Assembly: GCA_043826435.1 (NCBI GenBank)
Contig: JBDRQF010000053.1
Coordinates: 896 to 64,895, forward strand
DNA from: Elusimicrobiota bacterium
GTDB taxonomy: Bacteria > Elusimicrobiota > Endomicrobiia > CG1-02-37-114 > JAHJSO01
Length of the DNA stretch: 64,000 nt
Reading direction: 5' to 3'
The notes under the pieces are model-generated. The model worked only from the letters and a program-made list of their open reading frames with translations, was not told the origin of the DNA and searched no databases. Shown here in pieces: positions 3,001 to 38,189 of this stretch. Position numbers and translations under genes: made by a program. Within the stretch, counting starts at the first letter, position 1. Each line of letters begins with the position of its first letter.

Positions 3001-6000
3001 ACACAGGTTCTGGAAAAGTGAGACAATATATGATAAAATATTCATCCACGGTTGAAATCTCAACGGATGGCCAGTTTGATTCAGCCATGACATGGCCAAA
3101 TAATATCATCCCGTCATCAGCAGGGACAACGGAGAATATAACACTCACAGGGCTTGACATAAACACCACATATTATTTCCGTCTAAAATCAAAGGATGTT
3201 TCAGAGCCAGTGTCTCTCTCATCATGGTCTGTAATGTCAAGTTCTGCCGGGTGCAGACCGCAGAGGGCGAATGTTTATATAAACGACATTGTCCCGTCTT
3301 TGTCGGCAGGTTCTGACTGGGTAGAACTCTTCAGCAACCTGTCGGCGAGTCAGACGCTCAATGGGTGGACGCTCGTGTATAACCAGGGCAGTATTGATTC
3401 GCCCGGCAGCGAATCAACCGTGTGGACCGGCGGGGCGGCTCACTACGTGTCTTCAGGCGGATTTTTTGTAATAGACGGGCTCTCACTTGATTCTTCCCAG
3501 AGTTATCATGTCCAACTAAGGGACAACCTGAACCGCCTGATAGACATTGTCCAGTGGCCCGCAGGGCTGGTTTCTGGCAATTCGTTTAGCCGTATTACAG
3601 ACGGAAATGACAATTATTTTGAAATTGACCCGACTCCAACAAAGAACTATGCCAACCACACAACTACGGGCGTTATAAAACTGAATGAGATTGACTATGT
3701 TTCTTCAGAAGAGTTTATTGAGATATACAACTCCTCGGATACTGTCCAGTCCATGACCGGCTGGTCTGTCAGGAATTACAACAATATCGTATTCAGGTGG
3801 ACAAGGCAGTGCTATCCACGAACATTTTCAGGGCTGTGTTGGACTTCCGTTGACAATACAGGCAAGACGTGGACGAACGCTTTTGGTAGCGGCGGGCTGG
3901 ACAGTGTGTCTGATTTTGTAGTCCTTGAAAATAATTCCGGGCAGGTTATTGACAGGACTACCTGGCAGTCAGGTTCAACTTACAGATACCGGAATTACAA
4001 GGGACAATTAGTTTCTTACGGCGCACCTGCGCCGGGTGGTGCGGTGTCAGGAGAGACCATAGGCAGACAACCGTCCGAGGGTGCGGATACGGACAATGAC
4101 TCAAACGACTGGATTGTGTTTTCTGCATCTTCCCTTGGCAGGAGGAACAACAATCCGACGCCAGCAACAACAAACAATTTGGGTTATCCTGCGTCTGATT
4201 CTTTCATCCCCCGAAGAGCAAAACTTGAACTAACCCTCGGGTCTGACTCATCCGGTGGCTGGACAGATACTTTATGGTTTGTCCGCACAGGGGGTTCAGC
4301 GGACAACAGGTCGCCACACATTTATCGTCTCACTGACCTGGGATTTGTTCTGTCTTCAATATCTGCACAGACAACTCGGCATGTCTGGATAAACAGACCC
4401 GACATTGATGGTTGGACACTTATTAACGGGACAATCTACAAATGTATTTTGAATACAGATACCGGTTCAGGTGCAACCCCTCAGATAATCCCGAGCAATA
4501 TCACTTATGATGCATCAGTCCACACTATTAGTGTTGTTGATTGTGCCAAACCACTGGTCAACAATGGTAAAAGGACAGCGATGCTCAGGGCTGATATAAA
4601 GTCAAACAGCCCGTCAGGCGCAAATGCAATCGGCGTTTCAATGGTGAAAGTAAAATTGACAGACGGCTCCGGCACAGCCCTTACAACCCTGCAGGCGCAG
4701 AGTATTTTTGGAAATATATACCTTATTGCAGACAGTTTAACGTCGGGCAGCACCGGGGTTTATCAGTATGAGATGGACACTGGCACTGCCGCCCATGCGA
4801 GTAGCAGTGAAATTTCACTGGATGGGGACGGCTACCAGACGATAAACTTATCCACCCCGAACACTGCTGGAAGGGTTTCAGCAGGGCAGTCAAAAATTTA
4901 TTTTATGGTCGTTGACCTTACGGATAATGCGGACTCGCAATCACCCAATAATTTCAGGGCGGGGATGGATGCTGATTCAGACACTACTCTTGTTGATATG
5001 CCATCCCTGGTCTATCAGGATATTCAGGGCACATCGCTTGTTACCTCTGTGTCGTCTTATGCTATTGCCCCTGCGTCCGCACCTGCCGGCACGTACTGGC
5101 CTTATGATTCAGGCACTATAACAACGATTGAATCAACCCCTGAAATTTATGATAAAATATACGTGGGCATGGGCAACGGCACTCTGATAGCATTGAGCGA
5201 TGCAGGTGAGTATAATTCTGATTATGCGGGGACAGGGGTTTTGCTCACCCCTTTAAGAAGTGATTACTGGACAGGCGAAAATAATTATGTATATTTTGTA
5301 AGTAAGTCGGGATATATATATAAGAATACGACGGCAAATAGTAATGTGTGGACAAGGACGCTTTCTGCAGACATAAGTTCGGATTTTTCCGCCTACACCT
5401 CGCTTTATGCAGGCACATCAGACGGCAGGTTTTACCGTCTGGATACCTCGGGCGCTGACGTATGGAGCCCCGCGCCGACGCTGCCCAGCGGGGCGATGGC
5501 CGGCTCACCAGTGATAGACGATGGTTTTTCGACGGGCATAGGCGAAAGTTCTGTGTGGGTGGGGACGAATTCCGGATGGGTTTACCGTTTGAAATTATTA
5601 GATGCAACGGTTCTTTCTTCAACCTATGTCGCCTCTGCAATAACGACTTCTATATGTTATGATTCGGGATATTATGCCCAGTCATTGAACAAAATGAATG
5701 TGTATTTTGGTACAGAAAATGGAAAGGTATATTGTAGATATGGTTTGACACTCAGCAGTGTGCCGGCTAACTGGCAGGACTGCAGTTTCAATTCAAAAAT
5801 AAACTCACTGGTCGGGCCGCAGATAGAAGGCACGGACAAGTATTTATATTTGGCGTGCGAAAACGGCATGGTGTATAAAATAAATGCGGAAACAGGTGCG
5901 ACGGTCTGGTCATACCAGGCGGGCGGTGCGGTCAGGGCAGGATTGTTCGCTGCTACCTCTATGGCAAGTCCAGATATTAATTCCCCATTTTACAACCTCA

Positions 6001-6185
6001 ATTACATATACTTCGGCTGTGAAGACGGCAACCTGTATGCTGTCCACAAAGACACGGCAGGGATGAAGCAGGGTTTCCCGGTGTCCGTCGGAGCGGAAAT
6101 AAAAGGGAGCATAAAATATGACACATCAAATCACAGGGTTTATTTCGGAGCGAATAATGGAAAGATATACTGCATCCAGCAGTAA
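18..6185 (+). CDS. Giant secreted surface protein, 5' end cut by the window edge. It has FN3-like repeats, four ~95-aa Trp-rich repeats, three ~120-aa repeats ending in 'KDTxPP', two lamin-tail domains (LTD) and a C-terminal PQQ-like beta-propeller. There is no C-terminal sorting domain.
   Basis: The frame is open from the window edge. The FN3 signature 'LSWTAP...YLVKY...TYY' recurs. The LTD motifs are 'VYINDIVPSL...WVELFSN...NGWTL' and 'IKLNEIDYVSSEEFIEIYN...MTGWSV'. The PQQ-like blades are 'VYFGTENGKVYC', 'YIYFGCEDGNLYAV' and 'RVYFGANNGKIYCI'. Confidence 0.8.
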   Translation: MTTGQYSISGAGIGWTDIFNIPTGTQAYTSNWGLQSGHWGLLTPGTNYVSVRGFDKVNLSTSVPNLFLVLKDTEPPAGITNLTCNPGISGGEILLSWTAPQDIPSGVESYLVKYTTGPQFINRTDFLARGTTFYQSWTPLLSSQTENKSVTGLIEGSTYYIGILSKDRTTPPTNYSPLLYGSTNQSSAQRVAPARITTLAGSSPGDLNPSEVRLTWTAVGDDGTTGNASGYVVKYATYAFTSAEWNSSVVSTYTQSWTPLSSGSQEEKVLSMPQSGTTYYFAIRVFDDASPGENYSLMSNTVAVQSRPTGPADGMIVFPDGTSGTPKYRKYTAANNSWGTTSDAAGSAGTVRWAVLRACPTIRNEKLLGIQSGGGTEPDGRLYLQRWNGSTWAGMSPLTPSSQINSTKYDSRYRAFDIAYEQTNGRAMIVFSTNGVGAVQYHLWSSTAEAFVIYGGTVPLSGSSGVVRWVRLEPQPGTNRIMLSALDANNDLYSICWNGSSWVEGNMNTVGTAVNIYQCYDVAWELTSGRCLVLWAEGTATQYKIYTPGTGWGIATAGPNPAATVNWIKLASDRVSGTNRIGASILDASGAPNDWWVSIWEGSSWINTTEISASMDAATQRLMDIAWEKDGRCIVVGVQNAAPASSLSYAIWSAGWSGLTTLSDDLGNSVDLRWLQLIPDPNSNKMIVAGTNANTSNNASVRTQNWSGTSWSGVTAHTALAPSGTYECAVITLDRHDTVAPTFTNNQSGDGIWRSINNGVYDVDFFDTGDSKLSKVQTQLASGSGGSGVYRTWTDEITGINAESYTTNWGLTGTTWQQLNQGKTFISLKIFDGVGNNVSLTDAFYVQKDTQPPTITNNMAGGLTTWFNNNPGAVMDIDFADQSGLSLLSTAQYLIYAQSNMTGSQIVVGTIFNYAPSRLGWTDNFGLNTGHWELLLNSTNYVSVRCFDVAGSTRTAIDAFVVLKDTVPPAGITGLSALPGGFKGAIALTWTAPSDTGSGKVRQYMIKYSSTVEISTDGQFDSAMTWPNNIIPSSAGTTENITLTGLDINTTYYFRLKSKDVSEPVSLSSWSVMSSSAGCRPQRANVYINDIVPSLSAGSDWVELFSNLSASQTLNGWTLVYNQGSIDSPGSESTVWTGGAAHYVSSGGFFVIDGLSLDSSQSYHVQLRDNLNRLIDIVQWPAGLVSGNSFSRITDGNDNYFEIDPTPTKNYANHTTTGVIKLNEIDYVSSEEFIEIYNSSDTVQSMTGWSVRNYNNIVFRWTRQCYPRTFSGLCWTSVDNTGKTWTNAFGSGGLDSVSDFVVLENNSGQVIDRTTWQSGSTYRYRNYKGQLVSYGAPAPGGAVSGETIGRQPSEGADTDNDSNDWIVFSASSLGRRNNNPTPATTNNLGYPASDSFIPRRAKLELTLGSDSSGGWTDTLWFVRTGGSADNRSPHIYRLTDLGFVLSSISAQTTRHVWINRPDIDGWTLINGTIYKCILNTDTGSGATPQIIPSNITYDASVHTISVVDCAKPLVNNGKRTAMLRADIKSNSPSGANAIGVSMVKVKLTDGSGTALTTLQAQSIFGNIYLIADSLTSGSTGVYQYEMDTGTAAHASSSEISLDGDGYQTINLSTPNTAGRVSAGQSKIYFMVVDLTDNADSQSPNNFRAGMDADSDTTLVDMPSLVYQDIQGTSLVTSVSSYAIAPASAPAGTYWPYDSGTITTIESTPEIYDKIYVGMGNGTLIALSDAGEYNSDYAGTGVLLTPLRSDYWTGENNYVYFVSKSGYIYKNTTANSNVWTRTLSADISSDFSAYTSLYAGTSDGRFYRLDTSGADVWSPAPTLPSGAMAGSPVIDDGFSTGIGESSVWVGTNSGWVYRLKLLDATVLSSTYVASAITTSICYDSGYYAQSLNKMNVYFGTENGKVYCRYGLTLSSVPANWQDCSFNSKINSLVGPQIEGTDKYLYLACENGMVYKINAETGATVWSYQAGGAVRAGLFAATSMASPDINSPFYNLNYIYFGCEDGNLYAVHKDTAGMKQGFPVSVGAEIKGSIKYDTSNHRVYFGANNGKIYCIQQ

Positions 6186-6194
6186 CACCAGCGG

Positions 6195-6393
6195 TGTCAT
6201 TGCGAGCCACCGTGTCATTGCGAGGGGCGAAGCCCCGAAGCAATCTCTTCGCCCACTCTGTCATTGCGAGGAGCGAAGCCCCGAAGCAATCCCCTTTTAC
6301 CGACGAGATTGCCACGCCCTTCGGGCTCGCAATGACAATCCAACGGGTATTCAAATGATGTGTCATTGCGAGGCGCAGCCGAAGCAATCCCTT
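6195..6393. repeat. Cluster of MITE-like palindromic repeat units (TGTCATTGCGAGG...GAAGCAATC) at the junction of the two giant ORFs. Three to four forward units and one inverted unit (6308-6337).
   Basis: Forward units begin near 6195, 6213, 6259 and 6361. 'GATTGCCACGCCCTTCGGGCTCGCAATGACA' at 6308-6338 is the reverse complement of the unit start. The same termini recur at 8.6 kb, 12.6 kb and 55.9 kb. Confidence 0.8.
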
Positions 6394-8634
6394 TTGCTAT
6401 GGGCTATCCTTATCTGTTTTGTCTCTGTTGATTTCACATCCGCCGCCTCATGGAAGGCGTTCAGAAGAGGCGCCGGCAGGGAGGGGTTTATCAACGAGCA
6501 GGCATACCCTTACGCAGCCAACCCGCCCGGTTGGAATTATAACGTATTTTCTCCGGTTTTGTCTTCCCCTGCCGTCAAGGACGGCGTAATATATTTTGGC
6601 TCAAGAGACGGTTCCGTATGGGCATTAAATGCCCTGACAGGGGAAGTCCTGTGGCAGTACTCAACAAGCGGTTGGGTTGATTCAACCCCTGTCGTTGGAG
6701 ATTCCTTCGTCTATGTCCTGTCCAGGGACGGTGTCGTTTATTGTTTCAAAAAGAAGTATGGGGAGGAGGAGGACATGCGTCCCGTCTGGGAATATAACAC
6801 GTCCGCCACGAACTGTTCTTCTCCCCTGTACACCGACGGAAAGATTATTTTTCTTACCGGCCCTGCATTTGCAGGGACCGAGCAGAAAGCATACCTGTAC
6901 TCGCTGGACGCCCTGACGGGCGCCCTGGTTGAAAAAAGGCAATTGGGCCAGTTCAGTTATTCATCCGTTGCAACCGATAAAGACCGTTTTTACTTCTGCA
7001 CCAGCGACGGTAACTTTAACTGTTATGAAGGGGGCAAACCGCTCTGGACGAAAAAGACAATGGGCGGGCTGTACTTCACTACGCTTGCGGTTAAAGACGG
7101 GAAGGTTTACGGTTACGCCGGTTCTATTGACAACAGGGTTTATTCAATTTCCGGGGACGGTTCCGTTCTGTGGTCATCCCCTGAATTGAGCAACGTGGCT
7201 ACCGACGGAACTTCAATATCCGTTGCCGGGGATAAGGTGGTCGTGAACGTTTACCCGTTCGGGAAGGGATGGAACGGTTCGCAGTACACCTCATGGGCAG
7301 GCCGTCTTTACTGCCTTGATTTGCAAAACGGGACGACGCTCTGGTTCAAGGAATACACACCTGCAATAGACCCGTCCAAATCATACGGGCTTACTTCTTC
7401 TCCTGCAATCGCCGGCAAGGTTGTTTATGTCGGCACGACCGAAGAAGTCCTGTATGCGCTTGACATTGACAGCGGGACGGTTATAGCGAATTACTCTCTG
7501 GACGGCGGGATTGTCGCTTCGCCGGCTGTTTCAAACGGATGGATTTATATCGGCACGCTTTCAGGCAAATTCTACGGCATTAAGGCGGAAAAGATAACGG
7601 CGATATCTTCACCTGACGACGGGGATTCGGTTGGCGGCAGGGTTCCGTTAAAGGGACATGTAGTCCAGAAGCCGGCTGAATACGAAAAATACCGGATTGA
7701 CTATTCCCTCAATGATAACCCCTCAGTTTACGGGACCATTGCAGAATCATCCGCCACACCGTCAATAGAAGGGGACACACTCGCAACATGGGACGTTACG
7801 GGACTGCCCCAGGGCGAATACACAGTCAAACTTTATACCCTTGGTTCAACCGGAGGCGTTTTAGGAAGTGCTGCTGTGCAGTATTTTGTCAACCAGTCAA
7901 CGAGCGTTTTTGTCGGCAGGCAGGGCGGCACACTGCAGTTCTTCAGTGACGGCACTGAGATAGTAATCCCAGAGGGTGCGGTTGAGCAGACCGTTGAGAT
8001 TTCAGCCAGGAAATACACCGACCAGGAAGATTGGACGGGCAAAAACACGGGTATTCCGTCGGACGTCCGGGCCGCGGGAGACGCCAGAGAGTTTACCGTA
8101 TCGCCGTTGGTGGAGTTTAGCAAGAATGTCACGATTAAACTCCCTTATGAACTTGGTAAAAGCGGCATTTCACTGTCGGCAAAAGAGAAAAATCTCCGGC
8201 TCTTCTGGTGGGATGCAGACAAAAACAAATGGCGTATGGTCAATAACTCAACCCCGCATTCCGACGACACCCCGAAAAGGGTGTGGGCTGACATTCCGCA
8301 TTTTTCAACGTACAGGGTAGGCGAGTTTATTTCATCCGATACATTGCTGTTGGATGTTTATACCTACCCGAACCCCGCTCGTCTGACGGACAAACTTTAT
8401 TTTAAATTTTCATTGGGGGCTGAGAAAACGGACGTCATCATAGACGTTTACAACGTTGCAGGCGAATTAGTGGCGCACCTTGTGCGTCCGGGCCAGGACG
8501 ACGATGCGGGCCAGGTAAGGCAGTTTGAATGGGACATATCAAACATTGCAAGCGGTATGTATGTTTACAGGGTTGAGGCGAACTCATCCGGCAGGAAACA
8601 GTCGGTTACCAAAAAACTTGCAATAATACATTAG
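6355..8634 (+). CDS. Secreted PQQ-like beta-propeller protein with a conserved C-terminal cassette (two Ig-like domains plus a T9SS-type C-terminal sorting domain). It may be the split-off C-terminal half of the upstream giant gene.
   Basis: ATG at 6355 lies inside the repeat element and gives a signal-peptide-like N-terminus (MMCHCEAQPKQSLLLWAILICFVSVDFTSAAS). The ORF-track frame 6118-6354 is only the repeat read through. The PQQ blades include 'VIYFGSRDGSVWALNALTGEVLWQY'. The C-terminus is 'YTYPNPARLTDKLYF...VYNVAGELVA...ASGMYVYRVEA...KKLAIIH'. Confidence 0.7.
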   Translation: MMCHCEAQPKQSLLLWAILICFVSVDFTSAASWKAFRRGAGREGFINEQAYPYAANPPGWNYNVFSPVLSSPAVKDGVIYFGSRDGSVWALNALTGEVLWQYSTSGWVDSTPVVGDSFVYVLSRDGVVYCFKKKYGEEEDMRPVWEYNTSATNCSSPLYTDGKIIFLTGPAFAGTEQKAYLYSLDALTGALVEKRQLGQFSYSSVATDKDRFYFCTSDGNFNCYEGGKPLWTKKTMGGLYFTTLAVKDGKVYGYAGSIDNRVYSISGDGSVLWSSPELSNVATDGTSISVAGDKVVVNVYPFGKGWNGSQYTSWAGRLYCLDLQNGTTLWFKEYTPAIDPSKSYGLTSSPAIAGKVVYVGTTEEVLYALDIDSGTVIANYSLDGGIVASPAVSNGWIYIGTLSGKFYGIKAEKITAISSPDDGDSVGGRVPLKGHVVQKPAEYEKYRIDYSLNDNPSVYGTIAESSATPSIEGDTLATWDVTGLPQGEYTVKLYTLGSTGGVLGSAAVQYFVNQSTSVFVGRQGGTLQFFSDGTEIVIPEGAVEQTVEISARKYTDQEDWTGKNTGIPSDVRAAGDAREFTVSPLVEFSKNVTIKLPYELGKSGISLSAKEKNLRLFWWDADKNKWRMVNNSTPHSDDTPKRVWADIPHFSTYRVGEFISSDTLLLDVYTYPNPARLTDKLYFKFSLGAEKTDVIIDVYNVAGELVAHLVRPGQDDDAGQVRQFEWDISNIASGMYVYRVEANSSGRKQSVTKKLAIIH

Positions 8635-8718
8635 CGTCATTGCGAGGGCGAAGCCCGTGGCAATCTTGTAAATACATTAGCGTCATTGCGAGGGCGAAGC
8701 CCGTGGCAATCTTGTAAA
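8627..8718. repeat. Perfect tandem duplication of a 47-bp unit that includes the last codons and stop of the upstream gene plus one MITE-like unit (ACATTAGCGTCATTGCGAGGGCGAAGCCCGTGGCAATCTTGTAAA).
   Basis: Two identical copies follow each other directly. The first copy contains the TAG stop at 8632-8634. Confidence 0.85.
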
Positions 8719-8730
8719 AGTTAAACTGTT

Positions 8731-10371
8731 ATGAGGTTTTTTATGAAAATGAAAACTGTTAGCTGCATTTTTTCGCTGGGATTGTTTCTGGTTTTATTAC
8801 GGCCGACGTTCTATGGGACGCAGTTGAGGGCGGACGTCCGAATTCACCCCGACGCCGGCAACACCTCCGCCGCCTTTCTGAAGTTGAGCATAGGGGCAAG
8901 GCCGATATCCATGGGTAATAGTTTTGTTGCCCTTGCCGACGACGTGAACGCCCTCTGGTGGAACCCCGCTGGACTTGTCTCTGCGACGGAAAAAACGGCT
9001 GGCATTACCCACAACGAACACTTCCAGGACATAAGGCATGAGTTTGCCGGGTTCGTTTGTCCCCTCGGGGATGCCGGGGAAAATGGGGATACCCGCCGTA
9101 ATACGGATGCCGGGTTGCAAAAACATGTTGAGCGCCGGGCGATTGGGTTCGCTTTGTTAGGCCTTTATACCAAAAAGGAACTGGAAGGCAGAAGAGGGCT
9201 GAATGAGTTGGATCCCTACGAGCCGCTTACTCCGGTTGAATATTATTTTATGGTGTATGATATAGCGGCGCAGGTTTCGTATGCAATGCGTCTGCACAGG
9301 AACCTTGATGCGGGTTGTTCAATAAAGGGCATCCAGCAGACCATTGACGACGTTTCTGCCTGGGGCGGTGCGGTTGATGCCGGCGTTTTATACAGGCATC
9401 CCGGTTTAAATAAATGGCAGTTTGGCGCCGTTGTCCAGAACGCCGGGCCTTCAATAAAATTCATTGAGAAGGGCTTCCCGCTCCCGCTTACCTTCAGGGC
9501 CGGAATGAATTACAGGCATTCGGACAAACTGACGATTGTTTCTGATTTTGTCCAGCCCATAGACAACTATCTCTTTGTGTCGGCCGGGGTAGAATATAAA
9601 CCGATAAAACTTTTATCGCTACGCGCCGGTTACAGGTACCGTTTATACGGGCTGGAATTGGGAGACCTTTCAGGGCTGTCCTGCGGGTTGGGGGTTGATT
9701 TTTCTGGCTTTAACCTGGACTACGCCTTTGTGCCGTTCGGCGCACTGGGGGTTTCTCACCGCCTGTCTCTTTCCATGAAGATAGGCACGGTGTTCGGCAA
9801 AAAGGCAGACGCACCTGCATCCGCAGAACCGGCCGAAATACGGCAAAAGCCCCCGGCTCCGCTCCCGATTTTGACCGCTGAAAAAACAAAAGTTGATTTG
9901 TCAAAAATCCCGTTCGTTTACAGGCCATTCACGGCGAAAACCAATCTGCGGGACATAAACCCGTCGGGGATCGCGGTGTTCAGGTTTGAGATTGAAGACA
10001 GCACGGGCGGGATTTCCGTAATACATGGGACGGTGAGATCGCGTTCCTTTATGGCCAGGGTTGATTTTGAGATAGGAGAATGGACGCCCCTACCCGGCTC
10101 GCATGTCTCCGGTATGGAAGTGGTCAGATACTTTAACGTCAAAAAGAATTTTGCCGAAGAGGTCATCGGGGCGGAGATTACCCTGCGTCTCCCGAAGGCG
10201 GATATCGTCCGGGGACAGGGGAAAATTTACGTCCAACTGCTGGACGGCAGCGGTACGATTATTGAGCCGGAAATTTCCGAGGAGGGGGAATATTTGTATT
10301 ACCGTTTCCGTCTTGATAAACTCTCGCCATTTGCGGTGGTGAAACAGGGGAGAAATCCAATCAAAAATTAA
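8731..10371 (+). CDS. PorV/PorQ-family-like (FadL-type) outer-membrane beta-barrel protein with an extra C-terminal domain of about 190 aa
   Basis: The N-terminus is a signal peptide followed by 'FLKLSIGARPISMGNSFVALADDVNALWWNPAGL', which is shared with the two 323-aa paralogs downstream of the other cargo genes. Alternating beta-strand patterning continues to 'FVPFGALGVSHRLSLSM'. After a Pro/Ala linker comes a further domain (aa ~350-546). Confidence 0.55.
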   Translation: MRFFMKMKTVSCIFSLGLFLVLLRPTFYGTQLRADVRIHPDAGNTSAAFLKLSIGARPISMGNSFVALADDVNALWWNPAGLVSATEKTAGITHNEHFQDIRHEFAGFVCPLGDAGENGDTRRNTDAGLQKHVERRAIGFALLGLYTKKELEGRRGLNELDPYEPLTPVEYYFMVYDIAAQVSYAMRLHRNLDAGCSIKGIQQTIDDVSAWGGAVDAGVLYRHPGLNKWQFGAVVQNAGPSIKFIEKGFPLPLTFRAGMNYRHSDKLTIVSDFVQPIDNYLFVSAGVEYKPIKLLSLRAGYRYRLYGLELGDLSGLSCGLGVDFSGFNLDYAFVPFGALGVSHRLSLSMKIGTVFGKKADAPASAEPAEIRQKPPAPLPILTAEKTKVDLSKIPFVYRPFTAKTNLRDINPSGIAVFRFEIEDSTGGISVIHGTVRSRSFMARVDFEIGEWTPLPGSHVSGMEVVRYFNVKKNFAEEVIGAEITLRLPKADIVRGQGKIYVQLLDGSGTIIEPEISEEGEYLYYRFRLDKLSPFAVVKQGRNPIKN

Positions 10372-10397: not shown

Positions 10398-10413
10398 GAT
10401 AGGGAATAATTAA

Positions 10414-11593
10414 ATGAATAAACTAAAACTTGGAAAATTTGAAACAAAAAATATTGAATACAAAGAGGCAAAAAGTCGGTTGCCTGAAAACACTTATAAG
10501 ACGATTTCATCTTTTGCAAACACAAAAGGTGGAGTAATCTATTTGGGTATAAAACAGGATGGAGATAGGATAATCAGGCAGGGAGTGGAAAATCCGCAAA
10601 AGATTGTTGATGATTTGGTTTCAACGGTCAGTCAGAAGTATAATTTTTGTCCAGTCATTAAACCCGTCATAGAAAAGACAGGGATATTCAGAGGTTTTAT
10701 CAGGAGCGAGAAGGTTCACTTGATGCGCATACATTACCATGGCAGGACTGCTTCTTTTTGGTAAAACTACGGAAATTAAAAGGCATGTCCCTCATTTCAG
10801 GATTGATGTAATCAGGATAAGGGGAATAGAATGGGGCAAGGATAAAGACCCTTTCTTGTCTGCCGACTTATTCGGCAATCTTTTAAATATCAGGATACAG
10901 GTCATTGATATATTTGAGAGATTTTTCCTGACGCCGTTTAAGCTCGGTAAAGACCTGACCCGTATAGACGATGACCCGTTCAAGAATGCGTTGAGAGAAG
11001 CTCTGAGCAATCTCCTGATGCACCAGAACTATTTTCATTATTCTCCTTCACAAATCAGGATTTATAATGACAGAATTGAATTTTATAATCCCGGGTATTC
11101 ACTTAAAGACCCTGATAATTTTGCAACTCCCGGCTCTGAATTGCGTAATAGCCTGATTACTCCTGTGTTTTACGATATGGGTTGGGCTGAATCAAAAGGT
11201 ACAGGTTTTCGGACGCAGATTTTAGAATTGAAAAAATACGGATTACCGGAAGCCAAATGGGAAAGTGATGAGAAAAATGATAAGTTTACAATAGTATTTC
11301 CTTACCCCGAGGAACAGGTTGGTCAACGAGTCGCCCCACAAGTCACTGACCAAGTCACCGCACAAGTTACCGCACAAGTGGAAAAGAGAGACAGGATAGC
11401 TAAAATATTAAAATTTTGCGAGCAGCCGCAAACATTAAAAGAAATGATGCAATTCATAAATCTGAAACACAGGGTATACTTTTTAAAAGAAATATTAACA
11501 CCTTTATTAGAGAAAAAATATTTAAAGCGGACAATACCCGATAAACCAAAAAGCAGGTTTCAGAAATACATAACGAGTAAAAGGATTAAATGA
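10414..11593 (+). pseudogene. AlbA_2 (Schlafen-like) + HATPase_c_4 + wHTH putative transcriptional regulator ('RecG-C-terminal-like/Fic-associated' family), split by a frameshift near 10740-10765
   Basis: ORF 10414-10764 carries the AlbA_2 motif 'ISSFANTKGGVIYLGI'. It overlaps ORF 10739-11593 in another frame, which begins with the family-typical 'AGLLLFGK', carries an HATPase_c_4-like core, and has '[14 protein letters not shown]' linker repeats plus a wHTH tail. Confidence 0.65.
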
Positions 11594-11661
11594 AAGACCA
11601 CTCCCGGAAATTCTTGAAGATATCAAAACGCTTGATGAAAAATCAAAAGAACTGGATAAAG

Positions 11662-11693
11662 AATTAAAAAAGATATTCAGCCAGATAAAATTT
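11662..11693. repeat. Right copy of the 32-bp direct repeat
   Basis: Identical to 10366-10397. Confidence 0.9.
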
Positions 11694-11757
11694 TAATGTG
11701 TTTTGTAGGGCAGAGATTTAGCCCTGCTAAGACAGATGTTAAAAACAGGAGAAAAAT

Positions 11758-12576
11758 GTGACAACAAAAATAGCGGTTTTCAAAGGTAAAGGTATCAGAA
11801 AAACAATTCATAAGAATGAATGGTGGTTTGTTATTGTGGATGTGATATCGGCATTAACGGATTCTACAGATCCAAGTGGCTATTTAAAAGATATGCGTAG
11901 AAGAGATGAGCAATTACATAAAGGGTGGGGGCAAATTGCCACCCCCCTTCCCGTTAAGACAGAGGGTGGCATACAAAAACTGAATTGTGCTAATACAGAA
12001 GGTATATTTCGTATTATTCAGACAATCCCTTCGCCAAAGGCGGAGCCGTTTAAGAGGTGGCTGGCAAAAGTCGGATATGAGCGTATACAGGAAATAGAAA
12101 ACCCCGAGATTGCAACCAAAAGGACAAGAGCATTATATAAGGCAAAAGGATATTCTGATGCATGGATAGAAAAAAGAGTGCGTGGAATTGCCATAAGAGA
12201 AGACCTGACAGATGAGTGGGATAAAAGAGGAGTAAAAGAAGATAGGGAGTATTCAATATTAACAGCAGAAATCTCAAAAGCAACCTTTGGGATGACACCA
12301 TCAGAATATATGAAATATAAAGGGCTGGATAGAGAAAACCTAAGAGACCATATGACTGACCTTGAACTGATTTTCTCAATGTTAGGTGAAGCTTCCACTA
12401 CAGAAATAACCAAGAAGAGAGATGCTCAGGGTTTTATAGAAAATAAGCAGGCAGCAAAAGAAGGCGGAAAAATTGCAGGAAATGCCAGGAAGGAACTTGA
12501 AAGAAAAGCAAAGAGTAAAGTGGTTTCCAAAGAGAATTACTTAGATAAACCACAGGATAAGAAACTATTAAAATGA
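11758..12576 (+). CDS. dinD: DNA-damage-inducible protein D (DinD)-like protein with an N-terminal Bro-N/KilA-N-type domain
   Basis: GTG start 8 nt after an AGGAG. The N-terminal 'EGGIQKLNCANTEGIFRIIQTIPSPKAEPFKRWLAKV' is Bro-N-like. The overall length (272 aa) and the C-terminal region resemble E. coli DinD. Confidence 0.55.
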   Translation: MTTKIAVFKGKGIRKTIHKNEWWFVIVDVISALTDSTDPSGYLKDMRRRDEQLHKGWGQIATPLPVKTEGGIQKLNCANTEGIFRIIQTIPSPKAEPFKRWLAKVGYERIQEIENPEIATKRTRALYKAKGYSDAWIEKRVRGIAIREDLTDEWDKRGVKEDREYSILTAEISKATFGMTPSEYMKYKGLDRENLRDHMTDLELIFSMLGEASTTEITKKRDAQGFIENKQAAKEGGKIAGNARKELERKAKSKVVSKENYLDKPQDKKLLK

Positions 12577-12624
12577 GTAATTTGCGATACAGTGTTGCGT
12601 AATTCTGAAAATCGCAGACGGAAA

Positions 12625-12660
12625 AGATGTCATTGCGAGGAATGTAATGACGAAGCAGTC
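12625..12660. repeat. Degenerate partial copy of the GTCATTGCGAGG repeat unit
   Basis: 'GTCATTGCGAGGAATGTAATGACGAAGCA' is seen directly in the sequence. Confidence 0.5.
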
Positions 12661-12848
12661 ACGATGCAACATCTCTTTACGCATGGAACTCGCGGGGAAA
12701 AAACAAAACAAACAGAAATCTGTGGTGAGCAGGGTCGAACCATCGGCGAAATCCCTGAAAGATGGGAAGTGGTTGAATTAAGCAGCATTTGTGATTACGC
12801 AACTAGAAAATTGACATGGCCGGTGTATATCTCCGGTAGCCAAAGTTA

Positions 12849-13664
12849 ATGAATAATCATACTATAGCAAAAAACATCCTAATTCACAAACAGATAGGTG
12901 AGGTTGTTTCTGAATTTAACAGGGAGAATATTGACTTTATACTCCTGAAGGGGGCGGCACTCATAGAGATATTTCCCGACTATGCCTTTTCCCGCGATAT
13001 GGAAGATATAGACATCCTGGTAAAAAAAAGGTCTTTTTTGATGGCGAAACACATCCTGATAAACATTGGATATTCCTGTGCAATAGAGGACCCTGGTGCA
13101 TTTTTTAAGCAGGGGTTTCCCGCCCGTATTGACCTGTGTGATGGGTTGTGGTATCTGGACAGATCCGAGAACATCCTGTTGTTTAAAGAAGCAAAAATTT
13201 TTTTTGATATATCCGTTCTTTCCCCGGAGGATTTTTACATCCATGTTTTTGCGCACGCCTTTTTACATCACGCCAGAAGAGAGAGGGCGTGGTTGGATGA
13301 CTTGGCATTGCTTTCCGAGAGGTGGGCAGAGACAATAGATAAAAAGACATTAAGTTTAAAAATAAAAAAATACGGGTTTGACAGGGTGAGTAGCAACCCT
13401 TTTTATAACTGGTTTCTTGACAAGGAAATACCGCTTAAAGGACACATATTCAGATTTTTTTTCCTCCCGGTGAGAAAAAAGTTTTTATACATCAACGACC
13501 TTTTATTCCCGTCAGTTGATTTTCTTACGGGGAGGTATTCATTGAGAGGGTTCGGGCAGGTAGTTTGTTTTAGAATCATAAGACCCGCAATGTTGTTGTT
13601 TCAGTTTTTGAGATTTCTAACAGGGGTTGTTGGTTCCCTGTTTTTGCGCACCCAAAGTACTTAA
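12849..13664 (+). CDS. NTP_transf_5-type (PF14907-like) nucleotidyltransferase of unknown function
   Basis: 'QIGEVVSEFNRENIDFILLKGAAL...DMEDIDILVKK...GY' matches the family's N-terminal signature. Confidence 0.5.
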   Translation: MNNHTIAKNILIHKQIGEVVSEFNRENIDFILLKGAALIEIFPDYAFSRDMEDIDILVKKRSFLMAKHILINIGYSCAIEDPGAFFKQGFPARIDLCDGLWYLDRSENILLFKEAKIFFDISVLSPEDFYIHVFAHAFLHHARRERAWLDDLALLSERWAETIDKKTLSLKIKKYGFDRVSSNPFYNWFLDKEIPLKGHIFRFFFLPVRKKFLYINDLLFPSVDFLTGRYSLRGFGQVVCFRIIRPAMLLFQFLRFLTGVVGSLFLRTQST

Positions 13665-13680
13665 CATTCCGAACAATGTG

Positions 13681-13712
13681 GGAACTCAATGAAGCATCAG
13701 AGTTCCTTTCCT
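13681..13712 (+). terminator. Putative rho-independent terminator after the NTP_transf_5 gene
   Basis: Hairpin GGAACTC-(12 nt)-GAGTTCC followed by TTTCC. Confidence 0.35.
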
Positions 13713-13740
13713 GCGGCAGTAATCAATTGAATAATTAAAA

Positions 13741-13920
13741 AAATGCCAGCCCGCCAATCCTTGCAGTTCCATCGGTTGGTATAATTATGGTGGAAAGAAT
13801 TTTCAAAAGGGTGGTTTTACCAGCACCGTTTGGCCCGATGACAGCAGTTATTGAAGAAGGGGGAGATTCAAAAGATAACCCTGAGAGGGCAATAATTATA
13901 CTGTCCCCCATTAGTAGGGC
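13741..13920 (-). pseudogene. Truncated remnant of an ABC-transporter ATP-binding protein (N-terminal ~60 aa with Walker A)
   Basis: The minus-strand translation is 'LSGLSFESPPSSITAVIGPNGAGKTTLLKILSTIIIPTDGTARIGGLAFF*'. It stops right after the Walker A region and lies between the NTase gene and the IS remnant. Confidence 0.6.
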
Positions 13921-14000
13921 AGGCGAGTTAAGTTAGAGAAGGGCCTCTTGAAAAGACCTTACAAAAGAAGTAAAATAGGGGTCAAAAAGGAGGCACGGAG

Positions 14001-15064
14001 ATGGAGCGAAGGAAATGGGACAGTGCAAAGAAGTTTGAGGTGGTAGTGGAAGGGCTAAAGAGCGGGGTGTCAATCAGTGAGATGTGCAATCGGCACCAGA
14101 TATCGCAGGCGCAGTATTACAAATGGCGAGACCAGTTCATCAACAACGGCAGAAAAGTGTTTGAGATGCCTGCTAAGAACAAGGGGAGGAGCGGTTGAAG
14201 CAGGAGATAAGGAAGTTAAAGACAATCATTGGAGATTTGACGACGGAGTTAAAAAAAAACGACTACGAGTGAAACGGGCAAAATCACAAAAAGTTATGAA
14301 AAGGAATGCGGGGATAGTATCACAGATAAAAGAGATAAAAAGCGAGCATCCTTTGTGGGGATTTCGCCGGGTGTGGGCGTATATAAGATTTTAGAGGGGG
14401 ATTTTGGTAAATCGGAAACGGATATATCGTTTGATGAAAGAAAACGATTTGCTGGTTAGTCAGATAAAAAAGTTAAAAGCGGCCAAGAAAAATTAGAGCG
14501 ACAAAACCCGGCGAGGTTTGGGGCATAGATATGACGAAGGTTCTCACAAAAACTGGTTGGATAAATTTGGTCATAGTGCTTGACTGGTACACAAAGAAAA
14601 TAGTTGGTTTTAATGCAGAAGTTTACTCACGAGCCGATGAGTGGCTTAAGGCGTTGAACTTTGTGGTATTGGAACAGTTTCCCAACGGCATAAAGGAACA
14701 CGGGCCTCTATCACTGGTAAGCGACAACGGGAGTCAGCCGACGAGCGTTAAATTTATGAAGGAAACGTCGCTGCTCGGCATAAAACAGATATTCGCCAGT
14801 TACGACAATCCGAAAGGCAACGCCGACACTGAGCGAGTAATAAGGAAGCTAAAAGAGGATTTGGTCTGGCCGAGAGAGTTTGAAAATATTTATGAGTTCA
14901 AAGATGCGCTGTGTAAATTGGTGAACGATTACAACACGGACTTTCCGCATTCGTCGTTGAATTATCTGACGCCGGTAAAGTTTGAAGAAATATACCTGGC
15001 TGACCTGGCGCAGCAAAATATATTAAACCAGGGGGCCTTAAACTCTAACTTATTTTTCGCTTGA
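14001..15064 (+). mobile_element. Decayed IS3-family insertion sequence: an OrfA HTH fragment, then an OrfB (DDE/rve integrase) broken by frameshifts and stops
   Basis: OrfA-like 'SISEMCNRHQISQAQYYKWRDQF'. OrfB N-terminal 'IKEIKSEHPLWGFRRVWAYIRF'. An in-frame stop precedes 'ATKPGEVWGIDMTKV...GWINLVIVLDWYTKKIVG', then comes the rve core ending '...LNYLTPVKFEE'. Inverted terminal repeats were not identified. Confidence 0.7.
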
Positions 15065-15265
15065 CAAACGGGGGACAGTACATAATCTGTTTACCTCTGA
15101 CACGGAATACCTTTTTTAATCTCTCCGCATTTATGCTTATCATAATACCCGTTGCCTCAGGCCATCTGTTCCTCTGGCCACCTATTTCCCTTGCCGCTTA
15201 ACTTATGATATTCTGCCTCTTACTTCTTGCCCCCCGCCCTGTAGTCCACATTTTACCATTTTGTA

Positions 15266-16575: not shown

Positions 16576-18417
16576 ATGGCAAAAAATACAACCCAGTCAT
16601 TTTCAACTCATTGTAGCGAAAGATTTCAAAATCTGAGAATATACTTCTGGCCAGTTGTTATATTTTTATTTGCACTTTTGGTACGGTTATTTTACTGGAT
16701 GCAATTAAAAAATTTTCCTTTATCTCAGGTACCAGTTGTTGACGGTTTGTTCTATATAAAGTGGGCTGAGAGTATTAGTTTGGGTGATTGGTTAACTAAA
16801 TGGCAGGGAATATATTATTTAAATCCTGGTTATCCTTATCTTCTTTCATTCATTTTTTTGATTTTTGGGCGACAGATGCATTCTATACTTTTAATACAAT
16901 TTATTATAGGCACATTTAGTTGTGTGTTTGTTTATCTTCTTGCAAAAGAATATTTTAACCATAGAGTAGGAATTATATCTTCTATTGTTGCTTTGTTATA
17001 CGGTGTGTCACTTTTTTTAGAAGGGCTTCCTGTTACCGCCAGTTGGATTAATTTTTGGAATCTACTGATGTTACTGACCATCACAATTGCTCTTAAAAGA
17101 AATTCACTTTTGCTTTCTTTTTTTGCAGGAATATTCTTGGGATTATCAAATTTATTTAGAGCCGGCCCCGTAATATTGATTCCTGGAATTATTTTATATA
17201 TGTTTATTTCTGGTAAAAAGAAGAGGGAGATTGCGTATATATCAAGTTCGTTAATCCTGGGTTTTTTACTATTCTTTTTGCCAGTTATTTTGAGGAATTC
17301 TCTCTTTTCCAAACAACTTATTTTATCACCAACCGCTCATTCTGGAATAAATTTTTATATCGGTAACCATCTCCACGCAACTGGTTCATATGTACAAACA
17401 GAGTTTGATACAGGTGATCCTAAACTACAAATTCAAGATTACAGAAAAAGAGCAAGTCAAATTCTCGGGAGAGAGGTTTCTCTTAATGAATCTTCAAATT
17501 TTTGGTTTTCTGAAGGAATGAAGTTTATCAAGGGGAATCCTTTAAAGTGGTTAGCCCTCGTTGGAAGAAAGTTTTATTTACTCTTAGGTTATTATGAAAC
17601 AGGGTTAAATTATAGTTATTACTTTTTTCAAGAACAGATTTCGTTTTTAAAACTTCCATTTTTACTATCTTACGGTTTTATCGTTCCCTTTGCCTTAATA
17701 GGTCTGGTTTTATCTATAGAGCGAAAGAATCTACTCTTGCATTTTTTTATTATTTGTGCCGTTGTGGTATTACTTCTTTTTTATGTTACTACTGAATATA
17801 GATATTCTATTGTTCCGATTTTTATAATTTTTCACTCATACTTTCTTTATTGGATGTATGAACAGATAAAAACAAAAAGGTATAAGGTCCTTTGTCTCTC
17901 TTTGATGGCATCTTTAGGATGGGCACTATTTATTAATTTCCCAAGGAAGGAAATAAAGTTTGATAGAGATTATGTTAAATTGGCTACTGCGCATCTCACA
18001 TTAGGAGAAGCCGACCAAGGAATAGCATTGCTGGAGCGGGCTCTGGAATATAAGAAAGAAAGTTACATATATTATAACCTTGCTCATGCATATGCTTACG
18101 AGAAACATGACTATGTAAGAGCCATTGAAAATTACAAAAAAGCAATTGAATCAGACCTTAACAACCTGAATGCCTACGAAGAATTAGTTGAAGTATACTT
18201 AAAAACCAAAGAATATGAAAATGCAGAGAAGACATGTGAAGGGTTAATCAAAATATATCCCAAACATTATCCGATACATCAAATCCTGGGAAATATTTAT
18301 TATTTGCGAGGGAAGAAGAAACAGGCAATCCAATCCTGGGAAAATTCCCTTAGAATTTACCCGAATAACCCAGAATTGAGGAAAAACATAGAACGTCTTT
18401 TAGAGAAAAAAGGTTAA
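16576..18417 (+). CDS. Polytopic GT39/PMT_2 (ArnT-like) family glycosyltransferase with C-terminal TPR repeats
   Basis: About 10 predicted TM helices with PMT_2-like N-terminal loops ('DGLFYIKWAESI', 'NPGYPYLL'). The C-terminal 130 aa are TPR-like ('YNLAHAYAYEKHDYVRAIENYKKAIE...'). Confidence 0.55.
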   Translation: MAKNTTQSFSTHCSERFQNLRIYFWPVVIFLFALLVRLFYWMQLKNFPLSQVPVVDGLFYIKWAESISLGDWLTKWQGIYYLNPGYPYLLSFIFLIFGRQMHSILLIQFIIGTFSCVFVYLLAKEYFNHRVGIISSIVALLYGVSLFLEGLPVTASWINFWNLLMLLTITIALKRNSLLLSFFAGIFLGLSNLFRAGPVILIPGIILYMFISGKKKREIAYISSSLILGFLLFFLPVILRNSLFSKQLILSPTAHSGINFYIGNHLHATGSYVQTEFDTGDPKLQIQDYRKRASQILGREVSLNESSNFWFSEGMKFIKGNPLKWLALVGRKFYLLLGYYETGLNYSYYFFQEQISFLKLPFLLSYGFIVPFALIGLVLSIERKNLLLHFFIICAVVVLLLFYVTTEYRYSIVPIFIIFHSYFLYWMYEQIKTKRYKVLCLSLMASLGWALFINFPRKEIKFDRDYVKLATAHLTLGEADQGIALLERALEYKKESYIYYNLAHAYAYEKHDYVRAIENYKKAIESDLNNLNAYEELVEVYLKTKEYENAEKTCEGLIKIYPKHYPIHQILGNIYYLRGKKKQAIQSWENSLRIYPNNPELRKNIERLLEKKG

Positions 18418-18421
18418 AGTC

Positions 18422-27582: not shown

Positions 27583-27617
27583 GAATACCGGCAGCAATCA
27601 ACATGGAGGAGATTTAA

Positions 27618-38119: not shown

Positions 38120-38189
38120 AAGCGTTCCTTGACCTTTATTGATTAGAGAAATAAATCAAATTCACAATAACGGAATTATCTATTAAAAT

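Follow-up and report, generated by a model that had tools for sequence, protein, structure and literature searches.

A PorV/PorQ-family barrel of Elusimicrobiota that carries a hinged C-terminal beta-sandwich

Which described systems come closest?

To our knowledge, the T9SS and its PorV/PorQ carrier barrels have been described as specific to Bacteroidota, and our literature search found no description of a T9SS in Elusimicrobiota. The Bacteroidota PorV/PorQ proteins (PDB 6H3I/8GL6, chain F) belong to family NF033709 and are 14-strand barrels of FadL fold with an NPAGL hatch, features that they share with the protein described here, whose gene likewise adjoins genes for proteins ending in a Por_Secre_tail C-terminal sorting domain (CTD). 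In the translocon solved with its substrate, recognition of the CTD falls to the extracellular loops of the barrel together with SprA, and not to a periplasmic module or tail, while the periplasmic face of PorV touches SkpA (PMC10994853). PorQ/PorV complexes rest on PorKN rings, and PorG contacts PorK via a C-terminal extension (PMC12365241).

Individual cargos with cognate shuttle barrels are also known (PMC12618676), and the genes for the type B, PorP/SprF-like barrels are genetically linked to those for their own CTD cargo, just as we see here. For example, in the PorE-PorP-PG1035 system the cargo is thought to remain anchored on the barrel, and PorE, with its TPR, propeller, CarboxypepD_reg-like (CRD) and OmpA_C domains, ties PorP to the cell wall (PMC9143113, PMC12618676), thereby linking peptidoglycan to a barrel with a type B CTD protein bound (PMC9143113). 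The same domain types turn up fused to sister barrels of our protein. The differences are that our barrel belongs to the PorV/PorQ family, that the CTDs around it match the type A model, and that the proposed tether here is in cis and is a PGF-pre-PGF-like sandwich instead of OmpA/TPR. A final point of reference is OmpA itself, which has an N-terminal barrel, an internal last strand, a flexible Pro/Ala-rich hinge and a globular C-terminal domain. This is also the layout of our protein, and some sister barrels bear a real OmpA_C domain; however, our barrel is a plugged one of 14 strands where OmpA has eight, and its tail has neither OmpA_C homology nor a peptidoglycan-binding motif.

What does the gene at 8731-10371 encode?

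In the window, by which we mean the whole 64,000-nucleotide stretch of Elusimicrobiota DNA that was analysed, positions 8731-10371 (+ strand) form one unbroken ORF of 546 aa, and its product is a real outer-membrane protein in four parts: a signal peptide with the NPAGL hatch, a barrel, a hinge and a beta-sandwich. A Sec signal peptide is predicted at aa 1-34 (8731-8832, +), both from reading the sequence, in which cleavage likely follows LRA, and from a hydrophobic helix at aa 9-29 of the AF2 model. Next comes the N-terminal hatch, or plug (aa 35-87; 8833-8991, +), whose AGxTSAAFLK and WNPAGL motifs fall in invariant alignment columns and are the best-conserved part of the protein in alignments to paralogs and long homologs; AF2 models this region with low confidence. 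The barrel itself (aa 88-351; 8992-9783, +) has 14 long strands in the DSSP list of the AF2 model and adopts the FadL/PorV fold.

The earlier note's description of a PorV/PorQ-like barrel is well borne out. The NCBIfam PorV/PorQ subfamily model NF033709, whose cutoff is 90 bits, matches at 152.4 bits over two stretches (aa ~45-114 and 173-350), and the top Foldseek matches of the model are F. johnsoniae PorV, 8gl6_F (E 1.1e-12) and 6h3i_F (1.1e-10), with FadL and TodX ranking after them. Pfam matches on the barrel are weak (UPF0164 21.9 bits, PorV 18.5 bits). Compared with PorV, however, our protein is only 18% identical in structural alignment, and it falls far under the cutoffs of the PorV and PorQ equivalogs (NF033710, 43.3 bits against 250; NF033711, 89.8 bits against 220); the PorV2 model NF052325 gives 72.4 bits against 325. 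In addition, there is one barrel per cargo gene here, whereas PorV/PorQ is one general carrier, the host belongs to Elusimicrobiota, and the hinge and 150-aa C-terminal domain have no counterpart in canonical PorV/PorQ.

The barrel ends at '...GVSHRLSLSMKIG' (aa ~351), and a Pro/Ala-rich stretch and a separate domain follow, all as the earlier reading had it, as was the length of 546 aa against 323 aa for both paralogs, which are 37-40% identical to our protein. The hinge, rich in Pro, Ala, Lys and Glu (aa 352-391; 9784-9903, +), is disordered, with pLDDT <50 for aa 354-386, and among homologs it varies from 15 to 53 aa without sequence conservation. The ten-strand beta-sandwich behind it (aa 392-540; 9904-10350, +) is modelled confidently by AF2, with a pLDDT of 92.9 against <50 in the hinge, and the chain stops six residues past it. 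The extra C-terminal domain that had been put at ~190 aa is thus a separate, conserved fold, but its size is ~150 aa, after a hinge of ~40 aa.

Do related genomes keep the extension? They do: it is retained in ~25 protein clusters at a query coverage of 92-99%, and also in seven GTDB species, all of them Elusimicrobiota where named. GC content (0.49-0.57) is even across the junction of barrel and extension, without a compositional break. Between about a quarter and a third of the barrels in this branch of the family bear C-terminal tails, and they comprise TPR, CarboxypepD_reg plus OmpA, OmpA plus AMIN, SH3_3 and LpoB/CsgG-like modules; in two proteins (P0024 and P0089) the same domain as in our protein is followed by a CsgG/LpoB-like one. 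Appended tails must therefore be counted as common in this branch, and the extension, which had been called unusual, is so only in comparison with canonical Bacteroidota PorV/PorQ.

What is the C-terminal domain related to?

As judged from sequence profiles, the tail is a divergent, distant bacterial relative of the archaeal PGF-pre-PGF domain (TIGR04213 / IPR026453). When a profile of the tail was searched against 1.84 billion proteins, PGF-pre-PGF proteins made up 111 of the best 150 matches, with library-wide E-values of 1e-10 to 1e-5 and alignments at residues that TIGR04213 also covers, and hhalign of the tail profile with PGF-pre-PGF gives 99.0% (E 2.9e-18, 123 columns). Across 26 tails TIGR04213 is the sole recurrent NCBIfam match, hitting four of them at E <= 1 (best 0.0017), with our own tail at 12.4 bits (E 0.12), under the cutoff of 28; Pfam has no recurrent match on these 26 tails. 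Sequence searches of the PDB with the tail profile and with the PGF-pre-PGF profile returned no matches, and a word-indexed search for homologs of the isolated tail, which is too divergent for the index, returned only an identical 215-aa fragment (P0083). We set aside six candidate relatives, P0084 (the top match of the profile search), P0087, P0099, P0104, P0112 and P0224, as tandem-repeat proteins matched in many short partial stretches.

The tail and the archaeal domain share the motifs G-x-VYKY and ED-x-x-Y-x-Y and a final P-x-F strand. The settings are different, in that the archaeal domain is followed by a Thr/Pro linker and then by a transmembrane (PGF-CTERM-type) anchor at the C-terminus, whereas the bacterial tail stands at the extreme C-terminus behind a membrane barrel and reads 'SPFA' where the archaeal domain has 'PGFS'. 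On PGF-pre-PGF, the only relevant literature we found was domain counts in archaeal genomes.

In its fold, the tail appears to resemble the ZU5/GAIN/FIIND class. Foldseek comparison with ZU5-like folds gives E ~3e-3 and a probability of ~1, yet low TM values (0.36-0.39), and Pfam ZU5 (PF00791) has no match on the tail at E <= 1. A true ZU5 domain occurs in the cargo encoded directly upstream, and its last strand aligns in register with that of the tail, but hhalign of the tail with the cargo sequence (1.2%) and with the cargo-ZU5 profile (1.7%) is not significant, so we do not claim direct homology between tail and ZU5. The link is indirect and runs only through the fold and through PGF-pre-PGF, which hhalign matches to the C-terminal half of the cargo ZU5 at 81% (E 1.2e-5), with GFS over HFS. 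Unlike the autoproteolytic ZU5, FIIND and GAIN sandwiches, the tail lacks the H-F-S motif before the last strand, reading 'LSPFAVV' instead, and the site varies among the 26 tails (PFR, PFT, PFS, EFS, DFT, HYA and others); with the triad missing and unconserved, autoproteolysis of the tail is not expected. No peptidoglycan-binding signature was found in the tail. The recognisable relatives of the domain, archaeal PGF-pre-PGF and the cargo ZU5, are all extracellular and membrane-proximal, an observation that counts against a periplasmic tail.

What company does the gene keep?

The gene is the third member of a cassette whose order is always the same: a giant protein, a PQQ-propeller protein with ZU5 and a T9SS-type CTD, and then the long barrel. 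The cassette is kept in loci L001, L002, L004, L006, L008 and L010-L015, it is confined to Elusimicrobiota, and the long barrel is its ortholog-specific third gene. In the window the giant, with fn3, lamin-tail and beta-propeller domains (Pfam), is represented by its 3' part (18-6185, +; cut at the window start), in which neither ZU5 nor CTD was found at the C-terminus; homologous giants of 4295-10481 aa hold the same position in other loci. The cargo gene (6118-8634, +) encodes a PQQ beta-propeller (PQQ_2), a ZU5 domain (7906-8337, +), found by HMM, with a profile that matches ankyrin-2 ZU5 (6m3q_E, E 2.7e-7), and a Por_Secre_tail CTD at aa 750-824 (E 5e-10). Its H-F-S motif (aa 728-730; nt 8299-8307) lies ~20 aa ahead of the CTD, and HFS is present in all three cargos of the window. 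A PQQ-propeller ZU5-CTD gene precedes every long barrel examined. The overlap of the first two ORFs is an intergenic repeat; we considered a frameshift there and rejected it, homologs having two separate genes, and a signal-peptide-like sequence after M80 makes this residue (nt 6355) the likely real start of the second ORF. Downstream, an NTP_transf_5 gene (12849-13664, +; assigned by Pfam) comes directly after the long barrel in three of four homologous loci, and is separated from it here by a low-GC insert.

The two tail-less paralogs keep similar company. Each immediately follows a ZU5-CTD cargo gene of its own, one at 24931-25902 (+) after 20348-24904, the other at 32574-33545 (-) after 33582-36857 (-), which makes three pairs of CTD gene and barrel in the window, to be set beside more than 20 in other loci. 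The CTDs of the window match the type A model Por_Secre_tail, and one also matches CHU_C (Pfam). No T9SS core component (SprA/Sov, GldK-N, PorU) was found within the 64-kb window, so that it is from its family and from the adjacency of the genes that we describe the barrel as a carrier in a T9SS-like pathway.

What might the barrel and its tail do?

Our favourite reading, which we hold with moderate confidence, is that the protein is a cargo-dedicated carrier or anchor barrel, OmpA-like in layout, with a hinge that bears a docking domain in the periplasm. The barrel would serve the CTD protein encoded directly upstream, as PorV serves type A CTDs and cognate barrels of the PorP/SprF kind serve those of type B, and would grip its CTD through the extracellular loops. 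Given that a barrel of 14 strands finishes at its periplasmic face, the tail would hang in the periplasm from its hinge, and we infer some backing for this placing from the C-terminal modules of sister barrels (OmpA, AMIN, SH3_3, TPR, CarboxypepD_reg), which are of peptidoglycan-binding or periplasmic type, and from the CsgG/LpoB-like domain that comes after the tail domain in P0024 and P0089. There it may act as a non-catalytic docking module that fixes the complex of barrel and cargo to an underlying partner, be it the secretion machinery, the cell wall or a cassette-specific protein. The equivalent role would be filled in sister barrels by their fused OmpA, AMIN, SH3, TPR and CarboxypepD_reg tails, and in Porphyromonas by the separate PorE or by contacts between the barrel and the PorKN ring.

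An unlikely variation, which takes up the earlier note's suggestion of cargo-specific recognition, is that the tail is a periplasmic cargo receptor, catching its cognate partner before export and handing it to the barrel or translocon, and so conferring cargo specificity; either the PQQ-propeller ZU5-CTD protein or the giant, CTD-less one would be that partner. Compatible with this, the tail goes strictly with one cargo type, being found only in barrels behind the pair of giant and PQQ-propeller CTD protein, while the two tail-less paralogs of the window follow other cargos, and tail and cargo ZU5 appear to be of one fold class, with their last strands in register. However, the solved translocon reads the CTD with the extracellular loops of the barrel and with SprA (PMC10994853), and the profile similarity of tail and cargo ZU5 is not significant.

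Might the tail instead stand on the cell surface, beside the cargo ZU5 or the giant protein, as a kind of pedestal? For this the hinge would have to thread back through the barrel, in the manner of an inverse autotransporter, or the tail be exported otherwise. All other contexts of the domain superfamily are extracellular and membrane-proximal, with PGF-pre-PGF preceding the archaeal C-terminal anchor and ZU5 preceding the CTD, and a hinge of 15-53 aa could span a membrane. We nevertheless consider this decidedly unlikely: in barrels of FadL/PorV fold the N-terminal hatch forms a plug, and it is the motifs of this hatch that are conserved best here, the OmpA, AMIN, SH3 and LpoB-like tails of sister barrels act in the periplasm, and no FadL-type barrel is known to us to export a passenger.

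A more ambitious proposal, and frankly a long shot, joins these observations into one. The tail, the cargo ZU5 and archaeal PGF-pre-PGF may be a single ancient 'pre-anchor' module that would adjoin C-terminal sorting or anchoring devices in bacteria and archaea alike. In the Elusimicrobiota cargo, the active H-F-S form would cleave itself and leave the passenger kept on its CTD-barrel anchor by a non-covalent beta-strand only, and the barrel's own, inactivated copy would be the matching docking or decoy partner. If this were true, cargo self-cleavage would amount to a force-sensitive, GAIN-like release mechanism.

It is very improbable that the protein has nothing to do with secretion and is a generic porin or an uptake channel of FadL type, with an incidental CTD gene as its neighbour and a tail that is a generic envelope tether. 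The FadL/TodX fold matches too, the Pfam matches are weak and the T9SS core genes are absent from the window, but against this stand the three independent pairs of CTD gene and barrel in the window and their many counterparts in other genomes, an NF033709 score well over the cutoff, and PorV outranking FadL as a structural match. As for an artefact, in which a frameshifted read-through or chimeric assembly joined the barrel gene to a downstream ORF (the outcome, along with absence from homologs, that the earlier note named as fatal to the extension), it has practically no chance of being right and is already refuted by the homolog survey: although the exact full-length sequence is absent from the protein database, which holds only the identical C-terminal fragment P0083, the ORF is intact, independent assemblies share its architecture, the C-terminal domain is confidently modelled and the composition runs unbroken across the junction.

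Why should these barrels be of interest?

Here is a lineage outside Bacteroidota in which each surface protein with a CTD has a PorV/PorQ-like barrel of its own. Tails of periplasmic type are frequent on these barrels, and the set of TPR, CarboxypepD_reg and OmpA modules mirrors the separate tether PorE, which raises testable ideas on how carrier barrels are coupled to structures beneath the outer membrane. Among the tails, one that is conserved and has lacked annotation is, by its profile, a bacterial relative of PGF-pre-PGF, probably with a ZU5/GAIN-like fold, and this gives a poorly known module of archaeal surface proteins its first structural and evolutionary context. The cargos, in turn, bear ZU5 with the H-F-S autoproteolysis motif directly ahead of the CTD, and whether surface proteins are held or released by autoproteolysis in these bacteria is an idea equally open to test.

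How else does the barrel differ from its paralogs?

The barrel part of the protein exceeds the paralogs by only 28 aa, and 14 additional residues lie right behind the signal peptide (aa 32-45). An insertion of ~100 aa had been reported after NPAGL, a figure that does not hold up: from NPAGL (aa 78-82) to the next conserved block (F173) there are 90 residues against ~60 in the paralogs, a real excess of ~30, most of it a 23-aa loop unique to this genome. This insert of 21-23 aa ('GDAGENGDTRRNTDAGLQKHVERR'; aa 113-135; 9067-9135, +) falls between strands 2 and 3, in what strand counting and barrel topology suggest is a periplasmic turn. It is modelled at pLDDT <50; neither window paralog has it, nor does any of the 25 long homologs in the alignment, and no repeat or duplication in the DNA was found as its source. 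The remaining ~9 residues belong to the enlarged loop between strands 3 and 4 ('ELEGRRGLNELDPYEPLTPVEYYF'; aa 148-174; 9172-9252, +), which exceeds its counterpart in the paralogs by 9 aa and is probably extracellular. The loop consensus, ERRSGLNExDPxEPLSPVEGYF, is kept in 26 aligned sequences and is a mark of the long-barrel subfamily.

What does the gene encode?

The PorV/PorQ-family gene at 8731-10371 (+) is a single 546-codon open reading frame lacking internal stops, and its C-terminal extension is a real feature, not an artefact, and not a categorically new one. The protein is a family member by NCBIfam NF033709 (152.4 bits against a cutoff of 90), stays far below the equivalog cutoffs for PorV (43 versus 250), PorQ (90 versus 220) and PorV2 (72 versus 325), and draws weak UPF0164/PorV matches from Pfam. 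In an AlphaFold2 model built on an alignment of 26 homologs, 14 long strands (aa 88-351) follow a signal-peptide helix and a poorly modelled hatch bearing the most conserved motifs of the family. Foldseek against the PDB puts F. johnsoniae PorV in the T9SS translocon on top (8gl6_F, E 1.1e-12; 6h3i_F, E 1.1e-10), with FadL and TodX ranking below.

The two 323-aa paralogs, at 24931-25902 (+) and 32574-33545 (-), share 37% and 40% identity with this long barrel. In a three-way alignment their match runs to '...HRLSLSMKIG' (aa ~351), after which the long barrel has 195 residues without counterpart, so that the extension proposed in the earlier note is borne out. The insertion of about 100 residues after NPAGL was overstated: in the long barrel 90 residues separate NPAGL (aa 78-82) from the next stretch of conservation (F173), where the paralogs have about 60. 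Of this difference, 21-23 residues form one insert (aa 113-135) and some 9 fall in the loop at aa 148-174. The 23-residue insert is missing in 25 of 25 long homologs and disordered in the model. Another 14 additional residues come after the signal peptide. Over the barrel part, the long protein exceeds its paralogs by 28 residues, no more. Gene-wide GC is 0.49-0.57, without a break at the junction of barrel and extension.

A search of a 5.8-billion-cluster protein collection returned 82 relatives, of which the best 25 or so are 487-556 aa long (query coverage 92-99% in about a dozen) and are named in their sources as Elusimicrobiota, Endomicrobiales or Elusimicrobia proteins. The aligned long homologs follow a common plan of barrel, linker (Pro/Ala/Lys/Glu-rich, 15-53 residues, not conserved) and beta-rich domain of ~133-170 residues. 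Among 557 barrel relatives from a GTDB scan of one genome per species, an HMM of the tail (aa 392-540 here) matches 7 of the best 80 (L007, L008, L010-L014), the named ones all Elusimicrobiota. Because the extension is kept in both sets, it is neither absent from homologs nor a frameshifted read-through or other artefact, which the shared plan rules out. One database protein alone, a partial one of 215 aa from an Elusimicrobia MAG (P0083), is identical to the tail in the window; the homologs are annotated at source as 'PorV/PorQ family protein' or 'hypothetical protein', with no mention of the tail. A 563-aa Endomicrobiia barrel (L009, 1313-3004), with the usual ZU5-CTD cargo upstream, has a 180-aa tail that escapes both the tail HMM and Pfam and may be more divergent or of another kind.

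What is the tail?

Structure and homology of the tail are well supported. The full-length model gives pLDDT below 50 for the linker (aa 354-386) and 85-92 for the tail, while aa 392-546 alone, with their own alignment, form a ten-strand all-beta domain (pLDDT 92.9, pTM 0.86), upholding the suggestion of a separate C-terminal domain. The 26 tails (the window's and 25 homologs') are all without a Pfam match, and their profile finds nothing among PDB sequences. By fold, the tail matches the FIIND of CARD8 and NLRP1 (7.7, 6.7), UNC5b (6.8) and adhesion-GPCR GAIN domains (6.5-7.7); independently, Foldseek places the BAI3 GAIN domain and NLRP1 FIIND on top (E ~3e-3, probability 0.99-1.0, TM 0.36-0.39).

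The profile HMM of the 26 tails has 318 matches at E <= 1e-3 among 1.84 billion representative proteins. Within the best 150, 111 are matched much more strongly by a PGF-pre-PGF profile, and the majority of these end in a hydrophobic C-terminal anchor; the others are 25 barrel proteins or barrel-containing fragments, 7 short C-terminal fragments and 6 tandem-repeat artefacts, which we rejected. NCBIfam confirmed 4 of the 111 as TIGR04213 PGF-pre-PGF (E 1e-29 to 1e-42), over the same residues as the tail-profile matches, and comparing the tails, profile against profile, with 14 PGF-pre-PGF domains gave 99.0% probability (E 2.9e-18, 123 columns). Among NCBIfam families, the independent curated model TIGR04213 is also alone in matching several tails (4 of 26, the lowest E being 0.0017); for the tail in the window its score is 12.4 bits, below the cutoff of 28. 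By these scores and the profile-profile match, the tail is a bacterial relative of the PGF-pre-PGF domain, divergent and below threshold; we found that domain mentioned in the literature as an archaeal InterPro entry, with nothing further.

Cargo, ZU5 domains and the cassette

Each of the window's three PorV/PorQ-like genes lies directly behind one that encodes a large protein with a T9SS-type C-terminal sorting domain (CTD) at its end, and every one of these cargos has a true ZU5 domain 20-45 residues before the CTD, with an H-F-S motif. The ZU5 domains lie at 7906-8337 (+) in cargo 6118-8634 (HFS at 8299-8307, 'IPHFSTYRV'), aa 1269-1410 in cargo 20348-24904 (+) (HFS at aa 1398, 'VTHFSLYKI') and aa 836-971 in cargo 33582-36857 (-) (HFS at aa 958, 'TNHFSLYQI'). 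Their profile matches ankyrin-2 ZU5 (E 2.7e-7), and the order of ZU5-CTD gene and PorV-like barrel recurs in more than 20 other loci. FIIND and ZU5 domains self-cleave at an F|S bond after the ZU5 subdomain (PMC7483925), and the autopeptidase superfamily uniting ZU5, GPS/GAIN and Nup98 domains has members in large surface proteins of bacteria too (PMC3482391); if the cargo self-cleaves, the passenger would stay on its CTD non-covalently. Several orthologs of the long-barrel cassette's cargo have a degenerate form of the motif (SFS, RFS, GFS, SLA, APA). One ortholog in an Endomicrobiales MAG (L001 4712-7945, equal to L007 2661-5918) has tandem ZU5 domains, the first degenerate (aa 612-741, TSFSFYRIMEY) and the second intact (aa 852-989, PHFSYYRIMEY).

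With hhalign, cargo ZU5 (alignment A4) matches PGF-pre-PGF (A5; P0103-P0193) at 81% (E 1.2e-5) over the C-terminal 59 columns, the cargo 'xHFS' falling on the GFS of archaeal 'PGFS'; tail against cargo ZU5 reaches a non-significant 1.7%, the last strands nonetheless being in register. The ZU5-PGF-pre-PGF match and the fold matches suggest, though do not prove, that all three form one superfamily. PGF-pre-PGF may fall within the ZU5/GAIN superfamily, and we found no literature stating this. Conserved autoproteolysis by the tail is unlikely, because the triad is absent from the window's tail ('LSPFAVV') and the residues at this position vary across the 26 tails. The main leads lie partly beyond 8731-10371, in the ZU5(H-F-S)-CTD cargos and the PGF-pre-PGF/ZU5 link.

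At four loci (L001, L002, L004, L006) a giant fn3/lamin-tail/propeller protein (4295-10481 aa) is followed by a PQQ-propeller ZU5-CTD protein (851-1077 aa) and the tailed barrel, with an NTP_transf_5 gene next in three of the four; in the GTDB loci the cargo type is the same, and a long ORF extends past the 5' edge. The window matches this order (18-6185, 6118-8634 and 8731-10371). Here as at the four loci, a PQQ-like propeller blade closes the giant protein, which carries neither ZU5 nor CTD.

Where might the tail sit, and what might it do?

In a barrel of 14 strands the chain ends on the periplasmic side, and the OmpA layout of barrel, Pro/Ala hinge and globular domain is shared by the long barrel. 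A tail of 67 residues or more is present in about 24 of the best 80 (of 557) GTDB barrels, and many PorV/PorQ-family barrels with C-terminal modules occur outside Bacteroidota, in Elusimicrobiota, WOR-3 and others. Their tails comprise modules with a periplasmic action, namely CarboxypepD_reg + OmpA (P0039, L029, L053), FlgD_ig + OmpA (P0057), OmpA + AMIN (P0077), SH3_3 (L078), TPR (P0042, P0053, P0058, L021, L032, L040, L052, L075), and also a PGF-pre-PGF-like domain followed by a CsgG/LpoB-like one (P0024, P0089). One relative, P0030, has an aspartyl-protease domain at its N-terminus instead of a C-terminal module. TPR, CarboxypepD_reg-like and OmpA_C make up three of the four domains of PorE, which links peptidoglycan to the PorP barrel holding a type B CTD protein (PMC9143113); in sister barrels these domain types are fused in cis.

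As to canonical precedents, SkpA touches the periplasmic face of PorV in the extended translocon (PMC10994853), PorQ/PorV attachment complexes rest on periplasmic PorKN rings, which PorG reaches by a loop and a C-terminal extension (PMC12365241), and cognate carrier barrels per cargo are established for type B CTDs (PMC12618676). From these, the OmpA-like layout and the periplasmic type of the sister tails, we infer both location and function: the long barrel would be a dedicated carrier or anchor of the upstream PQQ-propeller CTD protein, and the tail a periplasmic, non-catalytic docking module. The strict tie of the tailed barrel to the giant-protein cassette suggests that the tail's role is cassette-specific, and leaves the earlier note's cargo-specific recognition as a less likely alternative. 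Less probably still, the tail would be exposed on the cell surface, since the relatives of the domain are all extracellular. A literature search brought up nothing on T9SS-like systems in Elusimicrobia.

The surroundings of the long barrel

The window's NTP_transf_5 gene (12849-13664) is set apart from the long barrel by a low-GC insert. GC falls from ~0.52 to 0.31-0.43 across at least 10400-14000, a stretch that carries overlapping ORFs (10414-10764 and 10739-11593; Schlafen AlbA_2 / HATPase_c_4 / Fic-like_C) resembling one split gene, a Bro-N gene (11758-12576) and the NTP_transf_5 gene; an rve integrase fragment (14531-15064) lies outside the GC-profiled region. Positions ~10400-15100 are probably a mobile insert parting the long barrel from its usual downstream neighbour.

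A short palindromic intergenic repeat, CATTGCGAG-N(8-22)-GCAATC, occurs in 7 copies against 0 expected: four at 6216-6389, two in tandem at 8638-8711 (46-nt period) and one at 55961-55988, so that both cassette intergenic spaces contain it. ORF 6118-8634 is padded at its 5' end by the translated repeat ('RGEAPKQSL...CHCEERS'); the true start of this ORF is probably M80 (nt 6355). Finally, envelope-polysaccharide genes (16576-20275, 26377-29507 and 37397-42658) enclose the barrel/cargo pairs, namely two PMT_2+TPR glycosyltransferase paralogs, Wza-like Poly_export/SLBB, Wzz/GNVR tyrosine-kinase-like and methyltransferase genes and one GT4-kinase fusion gene; in L002 and L006, Poly_export/Wzz genes of a similar kind are found downstream of the cassette.
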